DNA of 30,000 bases from Acerihabitans sp. (GTDB taxonomy: Bacteria > Pseudomonadota > Gammaproteobacteria > Enterobacterales > Enterobacteriaceae): NCBI RefSeq assembly GCF_036398755.1, contig NZ_DASWOM010000011.1, positions 21,637-51,636 on the forward strand. The letters run 5' to 3'. Made by a program: the position numbers and the translations under genes. Shown here piece by piece: positions 2,003-8,337 of this stretch (positions within the stretch are counted from its first letter, which is position 1; each line of letters begins with the position of its first letter). The notes under the pieces were generated by a model. The model did not search any database, was not told the origin of the DNA, and saw only the letters and a list, made by a program, of their open reading frames with translations.

Positions 2003-2047
2003 GCGCCACGCCGGGTGCAACGTCAGCGATCCCGGGCGCTGGGACCG

Positions 2048-3265
2048 TTATTCCCCCGCGCCCGCCGCGCTATCAAACGCGCGATCGATATCCCGCGTTA
2101 AATCCTGCGGATTTTCCAACCCGATATGCAGGCGTATCAGCGCCGTGTCGCCTTGCCAATCGCCATGCTTGCTTAGCAGCGCCGGATCGGCGATGGTCGC
2201 CAGGCTTTCGTAGCCGCCCCAGGAGGCGCCGATGGCAAACAGCGACAGCGCGTCCACGAACGCCGCGGCAAACCCCGGCGCCTTTCGGCGCACGGTAAAA
2301 GACACCAGCCCGCTGGCGCCGGTAAAATCACGTTGCCATAACGCATGGCCCGGATCCGACGGCAGCGCCGGATAAAACACCCGCGCGACCTCGGCATGAC
2401 CCGCCAGATGCCGGGCCACCTCGGTGGCATTGATCTGGTGGCGCGGCATGCGTACCGCCAGGGTGCGGATACCGCGCAGCGTGAGATACGCATCGTCCGC
2501 GCCCACGGTCAATCCCAGCGCATCGTAGGCGGCGCCAATCCGCGCCGCCAGTTCGGGACCGTCGACCACCACGACCCCCTGCATGACGTCCGAATGTCCC
2601 GCCAGATATTTGGTGGCCGCCTGGAGCGAAATATTAGCGCCCAGCGCCAGTGGTTTGAAAAAATAGCCGCCGCTCCAGGTATTATCCGCGGCCACCAGGA
2701 TCCCGCGCCGGCGGGCCAGCGCGACTATCGCCGGGAAATCCAGCACCTCATACAATAACGAGCCGGGGGATTCCAGGTAAATTAGCCGCGTGTTCGGCCG
2801 GACAAGCGCCGCCAGATCGTCCCCGGACGGTGAAAAATACTGCAACTGTATGCCATAACGCGACAGCAGCGCCCGGTCGATACGATGTATCGGCGAATAA
2901 ACGCTGTCCGCCACCAGGATATGGTCGCCCGGTGACGCCAGCGCGATAAACACCAGGGAAATCGCCGACAGGCCGGAAGGCGTGAGGAATGCGCGATGGC
3001 CTCCCTCAAGGGTCGAGACCGCCGACTCCAGCGCCTGATGGGTATCCATGCCGTGGCGGCCATAGCTGGCGACGCGTTCACCCGCGCTGTGTCGTTGATG
3101 ATAGTCGGCCATGGTGGCGACCGAGGCGAAACGCACGGTGCTGGCGCGCACCACCGGGATATTGACCGGCCCGGCGCCGGCGGGGTCGGGTGCGGGCGCG
3201 CCGCTATGGATCAACAGGGTTTCCGCCCGCAGGGGGGGCTGCGGGGGCTGCGGTTTTCCGCTCAT
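2048..3265 (-). CDS. metC: PLP-dependent C-S beta-lyase of the Cys/Met-metabolism family (MetC-like cystathionine beta-lyase paralogue)
   Basis: 405 aa. SLQAATKYLAGHSDVMQG contains the PLP-lysine motif (E. coli MetC has SIQAATKYLVGHSDAMIG). ASWGGYESL and LIRLHIGLE are also present. GGAG lies 6 nt upstream of the ATG. The ATG overlaps the stop of the upstream cupin gene as ATGA at 3262-3265. Confidence 0.85.
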   Translation of the reverse strand: MSGKPQPPQPPLRAETLLIHSGAPAPDPAGAGPVNIPVVRASTVRFASVATMADYHQRHSAGERVASYGRHGMDTHQALESAVSTLEGGHRAFLTPSGLSAISLVFIALASPGDHILVADSVYSPIHRIDRALLSRYGIQLQYFSPSGDDLAALVRPNTRLIYLESPGSLLYEVLDFPAIVALARRRGILVAADNTWSGGYFFKPLALGANISLQAATKYLAGHSDVMQGVVVVDGPELAARIGAAYDALGLTVGADDAYLTLRGIRTLAVRMPRHQINATEVARHLAGHAEVARVFYPALPSDPGHALWQRDFTGASGLVSFTVRRKAPGFAAAFVDALSLFAIGASWGGYESLATIADPALLSKHGDWQGDTALIRLHIGLENPQDLTRDIDRAFDSAAGAGE

Positions 3266-3879
3266 GCCTTGCTCCTGTCGGGCGTCATCTGGGTGGCGTT
3301 GTAAGGGGTGACGGCGCCGGTGACCGGATCGAACGCCACCCGTCGCACCAGCGTTTCCAACGGACGCCCGTATAAATGCAAATGCCGGGTCGTGCGCTTG
3401 CCGGTGACATGGATGCTATGGATATCCTCCGGCAGGAAGGCGATGGGCGTGCCCGGCTCAACCACCACTTCCCGCAGCAGGCGCAATTCGGCGTGATCCG
3501 GCCTGCCATGATCGTCATGGCGCTCATAGATGCGGTTCAGTTCCTGTCCTTCGACGGCGGCAATGGCGGCCCAGGTGGTATGGTTATGCGGCACCGAGTT
3601 TTTATCCGCCAGCAGCACGTTCAGATAGAGCGCGATGTCGTCATCGCCGTCGTGCGCGTTAAGACGGTAGCGCGCGGAGGCTTCGCCGTCGGCCGTCGGC
3701 GGCGGAAAATCGCGCGCGCTGAATAAGCTTTCATCCGCGGCCAGTCGCGCCAGACGCTGGGTCACCTGCTCCAGCAACGGACGGGATAATGGCTGTCCGT
3801 CCAAAATGGCGCGGATCTCCCGCAGCGTATCTTCTACCGCTTGCCGACGGCGTGAGGCCGATATATCCAGGGTAGTCAT
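3262..3879 (-). CDS. Cupin thiol dioxygenase, cysteine dioxygenase / 3-mercaptopropionate dioxygenase family
   Basis: 205 aa. A 3-His metal site pattern is present: VPHNHTTW (HxH) plus EDIHSIH. HLHLY matches the SLHLY (His155/Tyr157) motif of rat CDO. GGAG lies 7 nt upstream of the ATG. Confidence 0.75.
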   Translation of the reverse strand: MTTLDISASRRRQAVEDTLREIRAILDGQPLSRPLLEQVTQRLARLAADESLFSARDFPPPTADGEASARYRLNAHDGDDDIALYLNVLLADKNSVPHNHTTWAAIAAVEGQELNRIYERHDDHGRPDHAELRLLREVVVEPGTPIAFLPEDIHSIHVTGKRTTRHLHLYGRPLETLVRRVAFDPVTGAVTPYNATQMTPDRSKA

Positions 3880-3938
3880 GACTCTTCTCCCATAAGTGAG
3901 TAAACGATGTGGTGCTTAAGCGACGGTAGAAACCCTCT

Positions 3939-5444
3939 TTATTCCCGGAACGCCTCCCGCCGGGTGCGGCGTATCGCCGGCAGCGCCACCAGCAGGACCA
4001 GTCCGGCCGCCGCAGCCAGCAGGGACGCCGACAGCGGGCGGGTGACGAACGTGCTTAAGTCGCCGTGGGACAACAGCAGGGCGCGCCGGAAATATTCCTC
4101 CAGCAGCGGCCCAAGGACGAACCCCATCAACAGCGGCGCGGGTTCGCAGTCCAGTTTCAACAAAACGTATCCCAGCAGGCCGAAACCGACCGCCTGCAGT
4201 ACGTCGAACACCGCGTTTTGCACCGAATACACGCCGATGCAGCAAAACACCAGGATCGCCGGATACAGAAAGCGGTAGGGGATGCGCAGCAGGCCGGCCC
4301 ACAGGCCCACCAGCGGCAGGTTCAGGATCACCAGCATCAGATTGCCAATCCACATCGAGGCCAGCAGTCCCCAGAACAGGGCGGGATTATTGGTCATGAC
4401 CTGCGGCCCCGGCTGGATATCATGGATCATCATCGCGCCCACCATCAGCGCCATCACGGCGTTGGAAGGAATGCCGAGCGTCAGCAGGGGAATAAACGAG
4501 GTCTGCGCCGCCGCGTTGTTGGCGGCTTCAGGCCCGGCCACGCCCTCAATGGCGCCGTGGCCGAACTCGGCGCTGAATTTGCTGATTTTTTTCTCCAGCG
4601 CATAGGCCGAGAACGAGGCAAGCGTCGCGCCGCCGCCGGGTAATATCCCCAGGATCGAGCCAAGCAGCGTGCCGCGATAAATAGCCGGCCGCATGCGTTT
4701 AAAGTCGGTTTTATCCGGCCAAAGCGTGGAGATTCTGCTGACGTCGACCCCGTTGCCGTCGTTGTCCTCCAGATTGCGGATGATTTGCGCAAAACCGAAG
4801 ATGCCCATCGCCAGCGCGACAAAGCTCAGCCCGTCGGACAGTTCGGCAATGCCCAGGGTAAAGCGCTGGGCGCCGGAATTGATATCGGTGCCCACCAGGC
4901 CCAGCAGCAGTCCCAGGACAATCATGGACAGCGCTTTCAGCAGTGAGCCCGACGACAGCACCACCGCGCCGATAAGCCCGAGAAACATCAGCGAGAAATA
5001 CTCGGCCGGGCCGAAGCGAAAGGCGACTTCGGTCAAGGGTATGGCAAAGGCCGCCAGAACCAGCGTGGCGACGCTGCCGGCAAAAAACGACCCGATGGCG
5101 GAGGTGGCCAGCGCCACGCCGGCCCGTCCCTGCCGCGCCATTTGATGCCCGTCGAGGGTGGTGACAACCGACGCGGACTCGCCGGGGATATTCAACAGGA
5201 TGGCGGTGGTGGATCCGCCGTATTGCGCGCCATAATAAATACCGGCCAGCATAATCAGCGCCGCCTCCGGCGGCAGGGCGTAGGTCGCCGGCAATAGCAT
5301 GGCGATAGCCGCCACCGGCCCCAGGCCGGGCAACACGCCGATCAGGGTGCCGAGCGTACAGCCGATAAAGCAGTACAGCAGGTTTTCCCAGGACAGCGCG
5401 GTACTGAAACCCAGCATCAGATGCGTTAATAACGCCATAACCAA
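3939..5444 (-). CDS. tctA: Tripartite tricarboxylate transporter (TTT), large permease TctA
   Basis: 501-aa polytopic membrane protein of typical TctA size and glycine-rich TM composition. It lies immediately downstream of the tctB-like and tctC-like genes. Confidence 0.9.
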   Translation of the reverse strand: MVMALLTHLMLGFSTALSWENLLYCFIGCTLGTLIGVLPGLGPVAAIAMLLPATYALPPEAALIMLAGIYYGAQYGGSTTAILLNIPGESASVVTTLDGHQMARQGRAGVALATSAIGSFFAGSVATLVLAAFAIPLTEVAFRFGPAEYFSLMFLGLIGAVVLSSGSLLKALSMIVLGLLLGLVGTDINSGAQRFTLGIAELSDGLSFVALAMGIFGFAQIIRNLEDNDGNGVDVSRISTLWPDKTDFKRMRPAIYRGTLLGSILGILPGGGATLASFSAYALEKKISKFSAEFGHGAIEGVAGPEAANNAAAQTSFIPLLTLGIPSNAVMALMVGAMMIHDIQPGPQVMTNNPALFWGLLASMWIGNLMLVILNLPLVGLWAGLLRIPYRFLYPAILVFCCIGVYSVQNAVFDVLQAVGFGLLGYVLLKLDCEPAPLLMGFVLGPLLEEYFRRALLLSHGDLSTFVTRPLSASLLAAAAGLVLLVALPAIRRTRREAFRE

Positions 5445-5447
5445 ACC

Positions 5448-5957
5448 CTAGTGGCTAATAAACGCGGGCCAGACCGGGATTAATTGATCCAGTCCCCAGA
5501 TAAACAACGTCACATTCAGCATGACCAGTACGGCCGTATTGGCAAGCGCGCCCCTGAGGGTGAACTGGCTGCTGGCCCTACTGGCAATCAGCACCAGCAG
5601 TGATACCGAAATCACCAGCCCCGCCGGCTCGAGCAATAGCGCGAATACCGTGGCGGCGCCCAGTACCCACAGCACTTTCCCCGCCCGCCACGGCGGCGCG
5701 GGGGCCGCCATGCGGCGGGCGGATAAAGAGAAAAGGATGACCAGCAGACCGAATGCCGCCAATAAGATCCCAAGGCAAAGCGGGAAAAACCCCGCGCCCA
5801 TCCGGGAGGCGGTGCCCATCGGGTATTGCCCCGCCAGGACGCTGAAACCGCCGCCCGTCAGGAAAAAAAAACAGCCGGACCAGAAATTCCGCCGATGGCG
5901 TATGGCCGGCAGGCCGCCGCGGCGCACCGCGTCGATTGTAAGGGAAGTGATATTCAC
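5448..5957 (-). CDS. tctB: TTT small permease TctB
   Basis: 169-aa, 4-5 TM protein between the tctC-like and tctA-like genes. It uses a GTG start. Its stop is 3 nt before the tctA start. Confidence 0.75.
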   Translation of the reverse strand: MNITSLTIDAVRRGGLPAIRHRRNFWSGCFFFLTGGGFSVLAGQYPMGTASRMGAGFFPLCLGILLAAFGLLVILFSLSARRMAAPAPPWRAGKVLWVLGAATVFALLLEPAGLVISVSLLVLIASRASSQFTLRGALANTAVLVMLNVTLFIWGLDQLIPVWPAFISH

Positions 5958-5999
5958 TATGGTTCCGCCTGTAAGAGCCGCCGCCCGCGGCAGCCGCTA

Positions 6000-6968
6000 T
6001 CATTGAATACTGATGCCCGCGTCGTGGACGATTTTGCCGTAACGCGTCGCGTCAGCGGCCAGTGTCTCGGCCAACTCTTGCGGCGTGCCGGCCTTTACGC
6101 CGTAACCCAGGTTCTCCAGTTCGCGCTTCACCCCGGGTGAACGCAGCACCTCGGCGAAGTCGCGGTTCAGCCGGTCGACGACGGCGGGGGGCGTGCCGGC
6201 CGGCGCCAGGTACCCCTGCCAGCTTTCAACGCTATAACCCGGCTGGCCCGATTCGGCCATGGTCGGCACCTCGGGCAACGCCGGCGACCGGTATGTCGTG
6301 GTCACCGCCAGCGCTTTTAACCGCCCGCTTTTAACATATTCGGTTACCGCCGCCAGGGTAATCAGCGTGGCGTTGGTATGGCCGGCGATAACATCCACCG
6401 CCGCCGGTCCGCCGCCGGGATAGGGGATATAGGTCACCTTGCCGCCGGTGCGCTGATTGAGAATTTCATGGGCAATCTGGGCAATGCCGCCGTTGGTGGG
6501 CAGCCCCAGGCTGATGGCGCCGGGTTTTTCCCGGGTTTCGGCCACATACTGCGCAAACGTAGCGATGCCGAGATTGGGATTGACCACCAGGATTTGCGGA
6601 TTGACCACCGCTTTGATGACAGGCGTAAAGGCGGCGGAATCATAGGGCAATTTCTTGAACAACAGCGCGTTAAGCGTCAGCGCTTCGCCGGTTTGCAGCA
6701 GGGTATAACCGTCGGCGGGCGCCTTCGCCACCTTGGCGCTGCCGATGGTGCCGCTGGCGCCGGGGACGTTTTCCACAATGACCGCTTGGCCCCATTTCTC
6801 ACTGAGCTTTTCCGCCAGCACGCGCGTAAGTTTATCGGCGCTGCCGCCGGCGGCCACCGGTACAATGATTTTGACCGGCTTTTGCGGAAATCCGGCGCGG
6901 TCCTCGGCGTTGGCCACCCCAAGCGTTGCAATCAGCAGACCCAAAGCCAGGGTTTTGTACGGTAACAT
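6000..6968 (-). CDS. tctC: TTT periplasmic substrate-binding protein TctC (Bug family)
   Basis: 322 aa. Sec signal peptide MLPYKTLALGLLIATLGVANA. Bug/TctC-like core (PVKIIVPVAAGGSADKLTRVLAEKLSEKWGQAVIVENVPGASG). GGAG lies upstream of the ATG. Confidence 0.9.
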   Translation of the reverse strand: MLPYKTLALGLLIATLGVANAEDRAGFPQKPVKIIVPVAAGGSADKLTRVLAEKLSEKWGQAVIVENVPGASGTIGSAKVAKAPADGYTLLQTGEALTLNALLFKKLPYDSAAFTPVIKAVVNPQILVVNPNLGIATFAQYVAETREKPGAISLGLPTNGGIAQIAHEILNQRTGGKVTYIPYPGGGPAAVDVIAGHTNATLITLAAVTEYVKSGRLKALAVTTTYRSPALPEVPTMAESGQPGYSVESWQGYLAPAGTPPAVVDRLNRDFAEVLRSPGVKRELENLGYGVKAGTPQELAETLAADATRYGKIVHDAGISIQ

Positions 6969-7176
6969 GGGACGTATCTCCGGTAATAAAAGCCTGTTTG
7001 AATTATCTTACCGGCGAAAGGGACGTTAATTAACTGATTAAACCGGCTATGGTTAGCAACTATTGGTCTAGACGCGGGAAACGCCGACCCACCCGCGCCA
7101 ACCGGCGCTTCCCAAACGCCGGAGGCCATAGTAAGCTTATTTCTCACATAATATTAACATGAGCTGAAAGGTAATA

Positions 7177-8337
7177 ATGTCCATACTGCAAGGCACTGAA
7201 CGTATTTTAACCACCCATGTCGGCAGTCTCCCGCGCCCGGTAAAATTGCTGGATCTGATGAAGTCGAATATCGACGGCGCGGATAATCAGGTGGAGCTGG
7301 AAAGCTGTATCAAAGACGCGGTGATCGAGTCGGTTCAGCAGCAGGTCGATGACGGTATCGATATTGTCACCGACGGAGAACAATCCAAGGTCGGCTTTTT
7401 TGCCTATGTCCGTGACCGCCTGAGCGGTTTTTCTCCTCGTCCGGGGCAGCGCTATACCGCTTTCGACGCGGAGGTCGAGGCGTTCCCCGACTATTACAAA
7501 CACTACTTCGGCGAGGCGATGCTCGGCGGCAACCTGGTGCCTTTCGTGCCGGTGGCCTGCACCGGCACGATTGCCTATCACGGCACCGCGCAATTACAGC
7601 GCGATCTGGCCAATCTGACGCAGGCGCTGGATAAAGCCGACGCCCACGCGGCGTTTATCCCGTCGGTGGCGCCGACCGGCGTGGGCAGCAACGAGTTTTA
7701 CCCCAGCGAAGGCGAGTACCTGGCCGCGGTCGCCGAGGCGCTGCGCGTTGAGTACAAAGCGGTGATTGACGCCGGGTTCAGCCTGCAAATCGACGATCCC
7801 TTCCTGCCCGATTTGTTTGCCGATCGCGCCCTGGACAATAGTGCTATCCACCGCAAGGCGGGTGAATATGTCGAGATCCTCAATCATGCGCTGCGGGGGC
7901 TGCCGCAGGAAAAAATCCGTTATCACACCTGCTACAGTATCAACGAAGGCCCGCGCATTCACGATGTGCCTTTCGTCGAGTTTGTGCGCTATATGCTCAA
8001 TATCAACGCGGCGGATTATTCCTTCGAGGCGGGCAATGTCCGCCATGAGCATGAATACCACCTCTGGGAAGAGATAAAGCTGCCGGCGGGTAAGCGATTG
8101 ATACCGGGCGTGATCTGCCATGCCAGCAACACCGTGGAGCATCCGGAGCTGATTGCCGAACGCCTGGTCCGCTTTGCCGAGCGCGTGGGACGGGAAAACG
8201 TCATCGCCGGGGCCGACTGCGGCTTTTCATCGCAGGCGACCTATAGGACGGAAGTGCATCCCACCGTGGTGCGCGAAAAATTCCGCGCCATGCGCGCGGG
8301 CGCCGACCTCGCCAGCCAACGGCTGTGGAAAAAATAA
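7177..8337 (+). CDS. Short cobalamin-independent methionine-synthase-like protein (MetE C-terminal domain family; Zn-dependent thiol methyltransferase)
   Basis: 386 aa. N-terminal THVGSLPRP motif. His-x-Cys (YHTCY) and a distal Cys (GADCGF) match the MetE zinc-ligand pattern. AAAGG RBS at 7167-7171. Confidence 0.8.
   Translation: MSILQGTERILTTHVGSLPRPVKLLDLMKSNIDGADNQVELESCIKDAVIESVQQQVDDGIDIVTDGEQSKVGFFAYVRDRLSGFSPRPGQRYTAFDAEVEAFPDYYKHYFGEAMLGGNLVPFVPVACTGTIAYHGTAQLQRDLANLTQALDKADAHAAFIPSVAPTGVGSNEFYPSEGEYLAAVAEALRVEYKAVIDAGFSLQIDDPFLPDLFADRALDNSAIHRKAGEYVEILNHALRGLPQEKIRYHTCYSINEGPRIHDVPFVEFVRYMLNINAADYSFEAGNVRHEHEYHLWEEIKLPAGKRLIPGVICHASNTVEHPELIAERLVRFAERVGRENVIAGADCGFSSQATYRTEVHPTVVREKFRAMRAGADLASQRLWKK

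Follow-up and report, generated by a model that had tools for sequence, protein, structure and literature searches.

A sulfur-poor dioxygenase-lyase operon headed by a tripartite importer in Acerihabitans sp., a candidate module for scavenging sulfur from carboxylated thiols

What would a bacterium gain from an operon that places a complete tripartite tricarboxylate transporter (TTT) directly ahead of a cupin dioxygenase and a C-S lyase? Here we address this question for a five-gene unit, tctC-tctB-tctA-cupin-lyase, in a 30,000-nucleotide stretch of Acerihabitans sp. (contig NZ_DASWOM010000011.1, positions 21,637 to 51,636; hereafter the window, whose coordinates are used throughout). A first-pass annotation had proposed import of a thioether or thiol carboxylate, beta-elimination by the lyase, oxygenation of the released thiol and mobilisation of its sulfur. 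Our analysis supports this overall logic, but the cupin belongs to the mercaptosuccinate dioxygenase (MSDO) family rather than to cysteine dioxygenase (CDO) or 3-mercaptopropionate dioxygenase (MDO), and the TTT is a loose partner. We propose that the unit is a module for scavenging sulfur under sulfur starvation, a role that we regard as highly probable in its broad form; the full model, in which S-(2-succino)cysteine (2SC) would undergo beta-elimination and then MSDO-type oxidation to succinate and sulfite, has in our judgement an even chance of being right.

All five open reading frames are co-oriented on the minus strand. The gene tctC (6000-6968) encodes a periplasmic binding protein of Bug/TctC type that bears a signal peptide (PF03401), tctB (5448-5957) the small membrane subunit (PF07331) and tctA (3939-5444, with a likely ATG start at 5438) the large membrane subunit (PF01970), each above its Pfam cut-off; these are followed by the cupin gene (3262-3879) and by the lyase gene (2048-3265). 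Gaps of 42 nt separate tctC from tctB, 3 nt tctB from tctA (9 nt from the ATG at 5438) and 59 nt tctA from the cupin gene, and the cupin stop and lyase start overlap by 4 nt (ATGA). A terminator scan found no site in any intergenic gap of the unit, and terminator-like matches inside the genes were near chance (14 versus 9.4 +/- 3.2 in shuffles). The short gaps, the overlap of the last two genes and the lack of intervening terminators reported in the first-pass annotation are thus upheld, as is the lack of an adjoining tctDE-type regulator, the divergent neighbour of tctC being a short MetE-like gene (7177-8337). The latter was rejected as a member of the unit, being absent upstream of tctC in every other locus examined. 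The five-gene cassette is kept in two related genomes (G001 and G009) at 88% nucleotide identity, with dN/dS of 0.13 for tctC, 0.40 for tctB, 0.04 for tctA, 0.24 for the cupin and 0.22 for the lyase, so that the arrangement is more than a product of chance; the nearest named proteins are those of Sodalis sp. RH22 and Acerihabitans arboris, the host being a Sodalis relative of soil or plant type.

The identity of the cupin is the key to its chemistry. No Pfam family matched it at E <= 0.001, PF05995 (CDO/MDO) included. Its best match by sequence in the PDB is the MSDO 8VNI (E 1.4e-46, MDO reaching only 3.5e-5), and its AlphaFold model (pLDDT 90) superposes on 8VNI with a TM of 0.85 and an rmsd of 1.6 A at 47% identity, compared with a TM of 0.73 for MDO. 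In the MSDO structure, Arg66, Gln64 and Asn82 bind the substrate's distal carboxylate, Arg175 binds the proximal carboxylate and His93, His95 and His149 hold the iron, while His161-His163-Tyr165 and Ala99 set the enzyme apart from CDO and MDO (bioRxiv 10.64898/2026.05.19.726356). Of the 12 site residues described, the window cupin has ten unchanged, the two differences being Val151 to Ile and Gln64 to Ser (S68). It retains the 3-His iron site (H98, H100 and H154), R70 (Arg66), R180 (Arg175) and N87 (Asn82), as well as H166-x-H168-x-Y170 (His161-x-His163-x-Tyr165) and A104 at the position of the cross-link Cys (Ala99). The 3-His site and the HLHLY motif recognised at first are both present, but the motif is the His-His-Tyr of MSDO and not the CDO/MDO signature for which it had been taken. 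With MDO and CDO the protein shares the cupin fold and the 3-His site at about 22% identity; it lacks their Ser-His-Tyr triad and cross-linking Cys and carries two arginines instead of one. On account of the motif, the weak MDO match and a fold nearer to MSDO, identity as CDO or MDO was rejected, and a true MDO is encoded elsewhere in this genome, on contig C17. Two carboxylate-binding arginines make cysteine, homocysteine, cysteamine and 3-mercaptopropionate poor candidate substrates, and cystathionine and lanthionine, suggested in the first-pass annotation as starting compounds, fit poorly as substrates. We consider activity of the cupin on mercaptosuccinate likely.

A tree of homologues resolves a clade B (support 100/98), which has Gln64 and includes the sequences nearest to 8VNI, and a clade A (89/67), which contains the window cupin; it also yields an Acetobacterales clade and a clade C of cupin-rhodanese fusions without Arg66. 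Arg66, Asn82 and Arg175 are invariant, both carboxylate-binding arginines being found in all 40 clade A cupins, and the position of Gln64 is Ser or Ala in every one of the 40. By sequence the window cupin falls within the MSDO family without being orthologous to the characterised enzyme. One branch (100/99) amid Burkholderiales sequences holds the six enterobacterial cupins, a placement that suggests that the enterobacterial clade A genes were acquired by transfer from Burkholderiales. MSDO-family genes were found in 85 of 201 sampled Alcaligenaceae genomes, compared with 8 of 401 in a phylum-wide sample. Clade C (L097, L102, L103, L118, L119 and L169) consists of proteins of about 740 aa that join an MSDO-like cupin without Arg66 to four rhodanese domains; these fusions are sulfur-poor, are usually divergent from a TctC orthologue and probably act on a monocarboxylic thiol. 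Two clade A cupins (L122:7800-9353 and L123:7707-9305) have no lyase nearby and are followed by an MmgE/PrpD-family gene, which, speculatively, could represent another route for the release of mercaptosuccinate.

The lyase, described at first as a full-length MetC-like enzyme with its pyridoxal phosphate (PLP) lysine, is confirmed as such: it matches PF01053, passes TIGR01324 (386.8 bits, cut-off 365.9) and has all seven catalytic residues scored against MetC Y56, R58, Y111, K210, S339, W340 and R372, namely Y68, R70, Y123, K219 (the PLP lysine), S348, W349 and R378. It is an extra copy, since an enterobacterial-type housekeeping metC, 42% identical to it, lies on contig C59 and two further family members occur in the genome; that metC and the placement of the window copy in another clade led us to reject the idea that it is the sole housekeeping metC. 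Compared with E. coli-type MetC, with which it shares fold, PLP lysine, catalytic residues and TIGR01324, it has a different distal pocket (R59 to H, D116 to R, Y238 to D and Y338 to A). Lyases beside clade A and clade B cupins mostly group apart from each other, mirroring the cupin tree (the A group being weakly supported at its base), and both groups lie apart from the enterobacterial housekeeping MetC.

To place this pairing in a wider context, partner genes were counted near 40 clade A, 43 clade B and 10 alphaproteobacterial cupins, with a lyase distance of <= 6.5 kb. A lyase was found beside 36 of the 40 clade A and 27 of the 43 clade B cupins and beside none of the 10 alphaproteobacterial homologues, all of which have a rhodanese gene. 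Of the 40 clade A loci, 34 also encode a PAAT amino-acid ABC importer, 27 a four-domain rhodanese and 12 an aminotransferase. The clade A ABC importer is present here at C11:14344-17589 (67-68% identity), on the same strand and 6-9 kb beyond the lyase. In Variovorax paradoxus B4 and Advenella, msdo likewise clusters with a cystathionine beta-lyase, whose role is unassigned, a rhodanese and an amino-acid ABC importer (PMC5373536); the Advenella importer is induced on mercaptosuccinate yet dispensable for growth. In Brenneria and Affinibrenneria, oxoprolinase-type genes and an SBP5 gene lie directly upstream of the cupin-lyase pair, joined in Affinibrenneria by a glutathione S-transferase gene, and aspartoacylase-type genes occur in other clusters; from what is known of these families, such genes would be tools for turning glutathione and N-acetyl conjugates into cysteine conjugates.

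Our principal new finding concerns the composition of these proteins. TctC, the cupin and the lyase contain no Cys and only one, one and four internal Met, respectively, which places them at percentiles 0.2, 0.5 and 2.1 of sulfur content among the approximately 3,700 called proteins of the genome; the membrane subunits are ordinary. Combined Cys and Met ranges from 0 to 1.5% in clade A cupins compared with 2.0-4.9% in clade B, and from 0.25 to 2.5% in clade A lyases; clade B lyases have 2.8-5.5%, and unlinked MetC a median of 3.8%. In every genome that has both types, six for the cupin and five for the lyase, clade A is the lower; because the difference holds inside single genomes, GC content is not its explanation. 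No p-value is attached to these comparisons, as related sequences are not independent. TctC orthologues (>= 60% identity) have a median of 0.67%, as against 2.35% in other Bugs, and Sbp and TauD, used as controls in this genome, have 0% and 1.8%. Making proteins low in Cys and Met has been described as a response to sulfate starvation (PMC8557817). Furthermore, LysR genes in several clade A clusters pass the CysB-family cut-off, and this genome has genes for CysI and for two regulators of the CysB family, one CysB-like and one Cbl-like. Together these sequence features point to the clade A dioxygenase, lyase and TctC as a sulfur-starvation version of the MSDO pathway.

In the mechanism that we propose, the MetC paralogue would act by PLP-dependent beta-elimination on an S-(carboxyalkyl)cysteine, of which 2SC is the likeliest, and release mercaptosuccinate, pyruvate and ammonia; the clade A MSDO would oxidise the mercaptosuccinate to sulfinosuccinate, which would decay spontaneously to succinate and sulfite, and the sulfite would enter CysJI assimilation. 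We propose 2SC because MSDO needs a dicarboxylic thiol, MetC frees the thiol from an S-substituted cysteine, and 2SC treated in this way yields mercaptosuccinate; from the sequence, the odds that the lyase cleaves 2SC in vivo appear level. The product of MSDO, sulfinosuccinate, is known to decay non-enzymatically to succinate and sulfite (bioRxiv 10.64898/2026.05.19.726356), and 2SC is a spontaneous adduct of fumarate and cysteine that forms universally (PMC12757645). The use of 2SC as a sulfur source, here proposed, is shared with the Bacillus subtilis scm (yxe) system and with the 2SL of Dickeya and Enterococcus (PMC9706529, PMC12757645). The path would nevertheless be a different one, since the known routes acetylate 2SC first, cut its S-succinyl bond and recover cysteine, whereas here the bond between sulfur and the beta-carbon of cysteine would be cut without acetylation and sulfite would be released. 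Acetylation was described in 2025 as crucial in all cases of 2SC breakdown (PMC12757645), and by Pfam and NCBIfam none of the five operon genes is an acetyltransferase, a ScmK monooxygenase, a fumarase-family 2SL or a deacetylase. Identity as a 2SL is not supported for an extra argininosuccinate-lyase-like gene (L260, G000:C93:57501-58938): it heads a PAAT ABC operon, has no recognised acetyltransferase beside it and is not sulfur-poor. That the pair constitutes a third, acetylation-independent 2SC route (a MetC paralogue and a sulfur-poor MSDO), Burkholderiales-wide and passed to plant-associated Enterobacterales, is a tentative suggestion to which we give somewhat less than even odds.

What, then, does the TTT contribute? 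TctC matches Bug proteins in the PDB and contains the carboxylate-pincer motif described for TctC domain 1 (PMC5812351) as P37-x-x-A-G41-G42-S-x-D45, in which P, G, G, S and D are invariant among orthologues. The tctA product resembles the TctA of Alcaligenaceae (63-67%) more than that of other enterobacteria (43-51%). Among 251 Comamonadaceae genomes searched independently, each of the six TctC orthologues (66-70% identity) has an MSDO-family cupin gene no more than about 7 kb away, although such a gene is present in only 16 of the 251; weaker Alcaligenaceae orthologues (52-59%) follow a rhodanese gene, belong to clade A clusters or stand alone, and one genome (G772, L126) has an independent cupin-lyase-tctCBA operon. 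A second TTT unit in this genome, on C17 (L089:5185-11389), consists of tctCBA, LysR, the true MDO (E 3e-93 to 6XB9, with sulfur content at the 0.5th percentile) and a four-domain rhodanese, without a lyase; gene order similar to this unit was also seen in G014 (L255). Because of these neighbours across relatives, the TTT belongs to a thiol-dioxygenase and rhodanese context and is not tied to the lyase. The grouping of the transporter with both enzyme genes is kept in G001 and G009, but the transporter is not an obligatory partner, tctA being found near only 3 of the 40 clade A cupins; obligatory coupling was rejected because four relatives have other genes downstream of tctCBA. The TTT would import a carboxylated organosulfur compound that feeds the enzyme pair, more likely a free mercapto-acid or its disulfide than the amino acid, since the transporter conserved beside these enzymes is an amino-acid ABC importer, which this genome keeps 6-9 kb downstream; that TctC binds 2SC itself seems unlikely. 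In betaproteobacteria many orphan Bugs are served by few TctAB pairs (PMC5812351), and the TTT unit may be complete here because its membrane subunits would have had to come with TctC into an enterobacterial recipient.

Several observations weigh against this account, and they bear on different parts of it. The window cupin lacks Gln64, a residue that contacts the distal carboxylate, and belongs to the sister clade of the characterised enzyme. Changes in the lyase pocket are not diagnostic, because the same positions vary in unlinked enzymes: charge reversal at D116 was rejected as a marker of succinyl substrates, the position being Glu in 12 Caballeronia members and varying in unlinked enzymes, and Y338 is Ala or Ser in every lyase linked to clade A or B but in some unlinked enzymes as well. 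In each of the four related assemblies examined, G001 and G009 among them (L086:10944-12161, L087, L099 and L100), codon 251 of the lyase, which encodes Gly in the window, is an in-frame TGA; with a dN/dS of 0.22, this suggests recent inactivation in the G001/G009 lineage. The cupin of G005 has no adjoining lyase, so that the dioxygenase can persist where its partner is broken or missing. The most constant partner of MSDO, a rhodanese, is not present in cis here: in G001 and G009 a 1.6-kb four-domain rhodanese gene lies on the opposite strand between an enolase-family gene and the lyase, and it has been cleanly lost at window position 2003-2047, although two rhodanese paralogues remain in the genome, on C17 and C76. 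The same tctCBA occurs without cupin and lyase in four Sodalis-lineage loci (A. arboris, G005, L233 and L234), two of which adjoin other genes of organosulfur-uptake type, and five of the six Comamonadaceae TctC orthologues face a clade C fusion, which lacks Arg66. Finally, a conserved block upstream of tctC (7025-7064, or 7002-7064 on the minus strand with the sigma70-like site at 7029-7002) yielded a leave-own-out position weight matrix that found no comparable sites genome-wide, nor were its sites enriched upstream of sulfur-poor genes (p 0.43); the matrix recovered no related regulon sites, and no CysB/Cbl site was recovered from this block.

The most probable alternative to the 2SC model is a broader salvage of S-(carboxyalkyl)cysteines, in which the lyase would free carboxylated thiols from adducts of itaconate, citraconate, acrylate or haloacetate and the preferred substrate of the Ser-type dioxygenase would be a branched or larger dicarboxylic thiol. 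MetC enzymes are well known to cleave C-S bonds promiscuously, the Ser or Ala of clade A is without exception, and clade A lyases also occur with only an Arg66-less clade C dioxygenase (L246 and L251). Yet Ser is common to the alphaproteobacterial clade and so may be ancestral, the residues Arg66, Asn82 and Arg175 do not vary, and it is the fumarate adducts that form universally (PMC12757645); we regard broad salvage as possible but the less probable choice.

Less probable again, and in our view unlikely, is that the TTT and dioxygenase handle free mercaptosuccinate or its disulfide, and that the lyase has a separate task, such as cystine cleavage to provide persulfide for rhodanese, or is dispensable. 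The broken or absent lyases beside retained cupins, the alphaproteobacterial homologues with rhodanese and no lyase, the lyase-free unit on C17 and the report of a TTT for the disulfide dithiodipropionate (PMC5812351) all speak for it. Set against them are the translational coupling of lyase and cupin through the ATGA overlap, their co-inheritance in two clades, the purifying selection on a lyase that is itself sulfur-poor, and the fact that this genome kept the lyase and lost the cis rhodanese; moreover, spending the sulfur of cysteine under starvation would be wasteful.

Alternatively, the TTT could be a separate unit for another ligand, upstream by happenstance in a sulfur-starvation island, with cupin and lyase under their own promoter. 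The rarity of tctA near clade A cupins, the four loci with other genes downstream of tctCBA and the 59-nt gap ahead of the cupin would fit such an arrangement. We nonetheless consider it improbable in view of the six Comamonadaceae orthologues near so infrequent a gene, the independent order in G772, the terminator-free gap and a TctC as sulfur-poor as both enzymes. A role in using mercaptosuccinate for carbon and energy, or in detoxifying it, as in V. paradoxus B4 and Advenella, is matched in its gene families (PMC5373536) but very unlikely, since the characterised type is clade B with normal Cys and Met, and the window genes are of the sulfur-poor clade A, which also occurs in genomes with both.

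Returning to the 2SC model, the unit resembles the Msdo clusters of V. paradoxus B4 and Advenella mimigardefordensis DPN7 (8VNI; PMC5373536) in enzyme family, fold, 3-His site, arginines and His-His-Tyr motif, in its paired cystathionine beta-lyase homologue and in the rhodanese and amino-acid ABC genes usually nearby. It differs in the sister-clade position of its dioxygenase (47% identity, Gln64 to Ser), in the scarcity of Cys and Met in dioxygenase and lyase, in the CysB-family regulator of clade A clusters as opposed to a local LysR in Advenella, and in having a complete tctCBA directly upstream and no cis rhodanese. The first-pass annotation knew of no characterised TTT for such substrates; in fact the Advenella TctCBA for 3,3'-dithiodipropionate and SlcHFG for sulfolactate have been reported (PMC5812351), as has the msdo-lyase-rhodanese cluster. 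Those transporters share with ours the three-part structure, the pincer and a tie to sulfur-carboxylate catabolism, but serve catabolic pathways with other enzymes, whereas the window TctC is one of a sulfur-poor subgroup of Bugs whose genes are linked to those for rhodaneses and MSDO-family cupins.

The MSDO, beta-lyase and rhodanese cluster and organosulfur TTTs are thus already known; what is new is the strong Cys and Met depletion of clade A dioxygenases, lyases and this TctC relative to paralogues in the same genome. We found neither the sulfur-sparing sister clade nor the 2SC hypothesis in the open-access literature searched, and papers there on mercaptosuccinate and succination, or on thiol dioxygenases and sulfur starvation, yielded no account of this route. 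MSDO has so far been studied as an enzyme for growth on mercaptosuccinate, with no role assigned to the adjoining beta-lyase; our comparison divides the family into carbon-catabolic and sulfur-sparing forms, each with its own co-inherited lyase. If true, the 2SC route would supply a natural source of the MSDO substrate, explain the uncharacterised lyase of msdo clusters and provide a new fate for succinated cysteine, a universal damage product. In addition, a ligand class, organosulfur carboxylates, can be offered for one Bug/TctC subgroup, and many annotations of 'cysteine dioxygenase' and 'cystathionine beta-lyase' in such clusters probably name the wrong reaction.

Downstream of the lyase, the junction at 2003-2047 (no strand), the position of the rhodanese in G001 and G009, contains a weak hairpin at 2004-2022. 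Beyond it lies a convergent mandelate-racemase-family gene (788-2002) at the 3.7th percentile of sulfur content, with a low GC of 52% and strong conservation (dN/dS 0.03); this gene is the last of a redoxin-PAAT ABC operon, itself an insertion that separates the lyase from DUF1847-PAAT genes (L092:10560-14338). DUF1847, a Cys-rich protein, recurs in enterobacterial versions of the cluster and beside the tctCBA of A. arboris (L092:9587-10258, L093:13117-13806 and L231:13237-13941).

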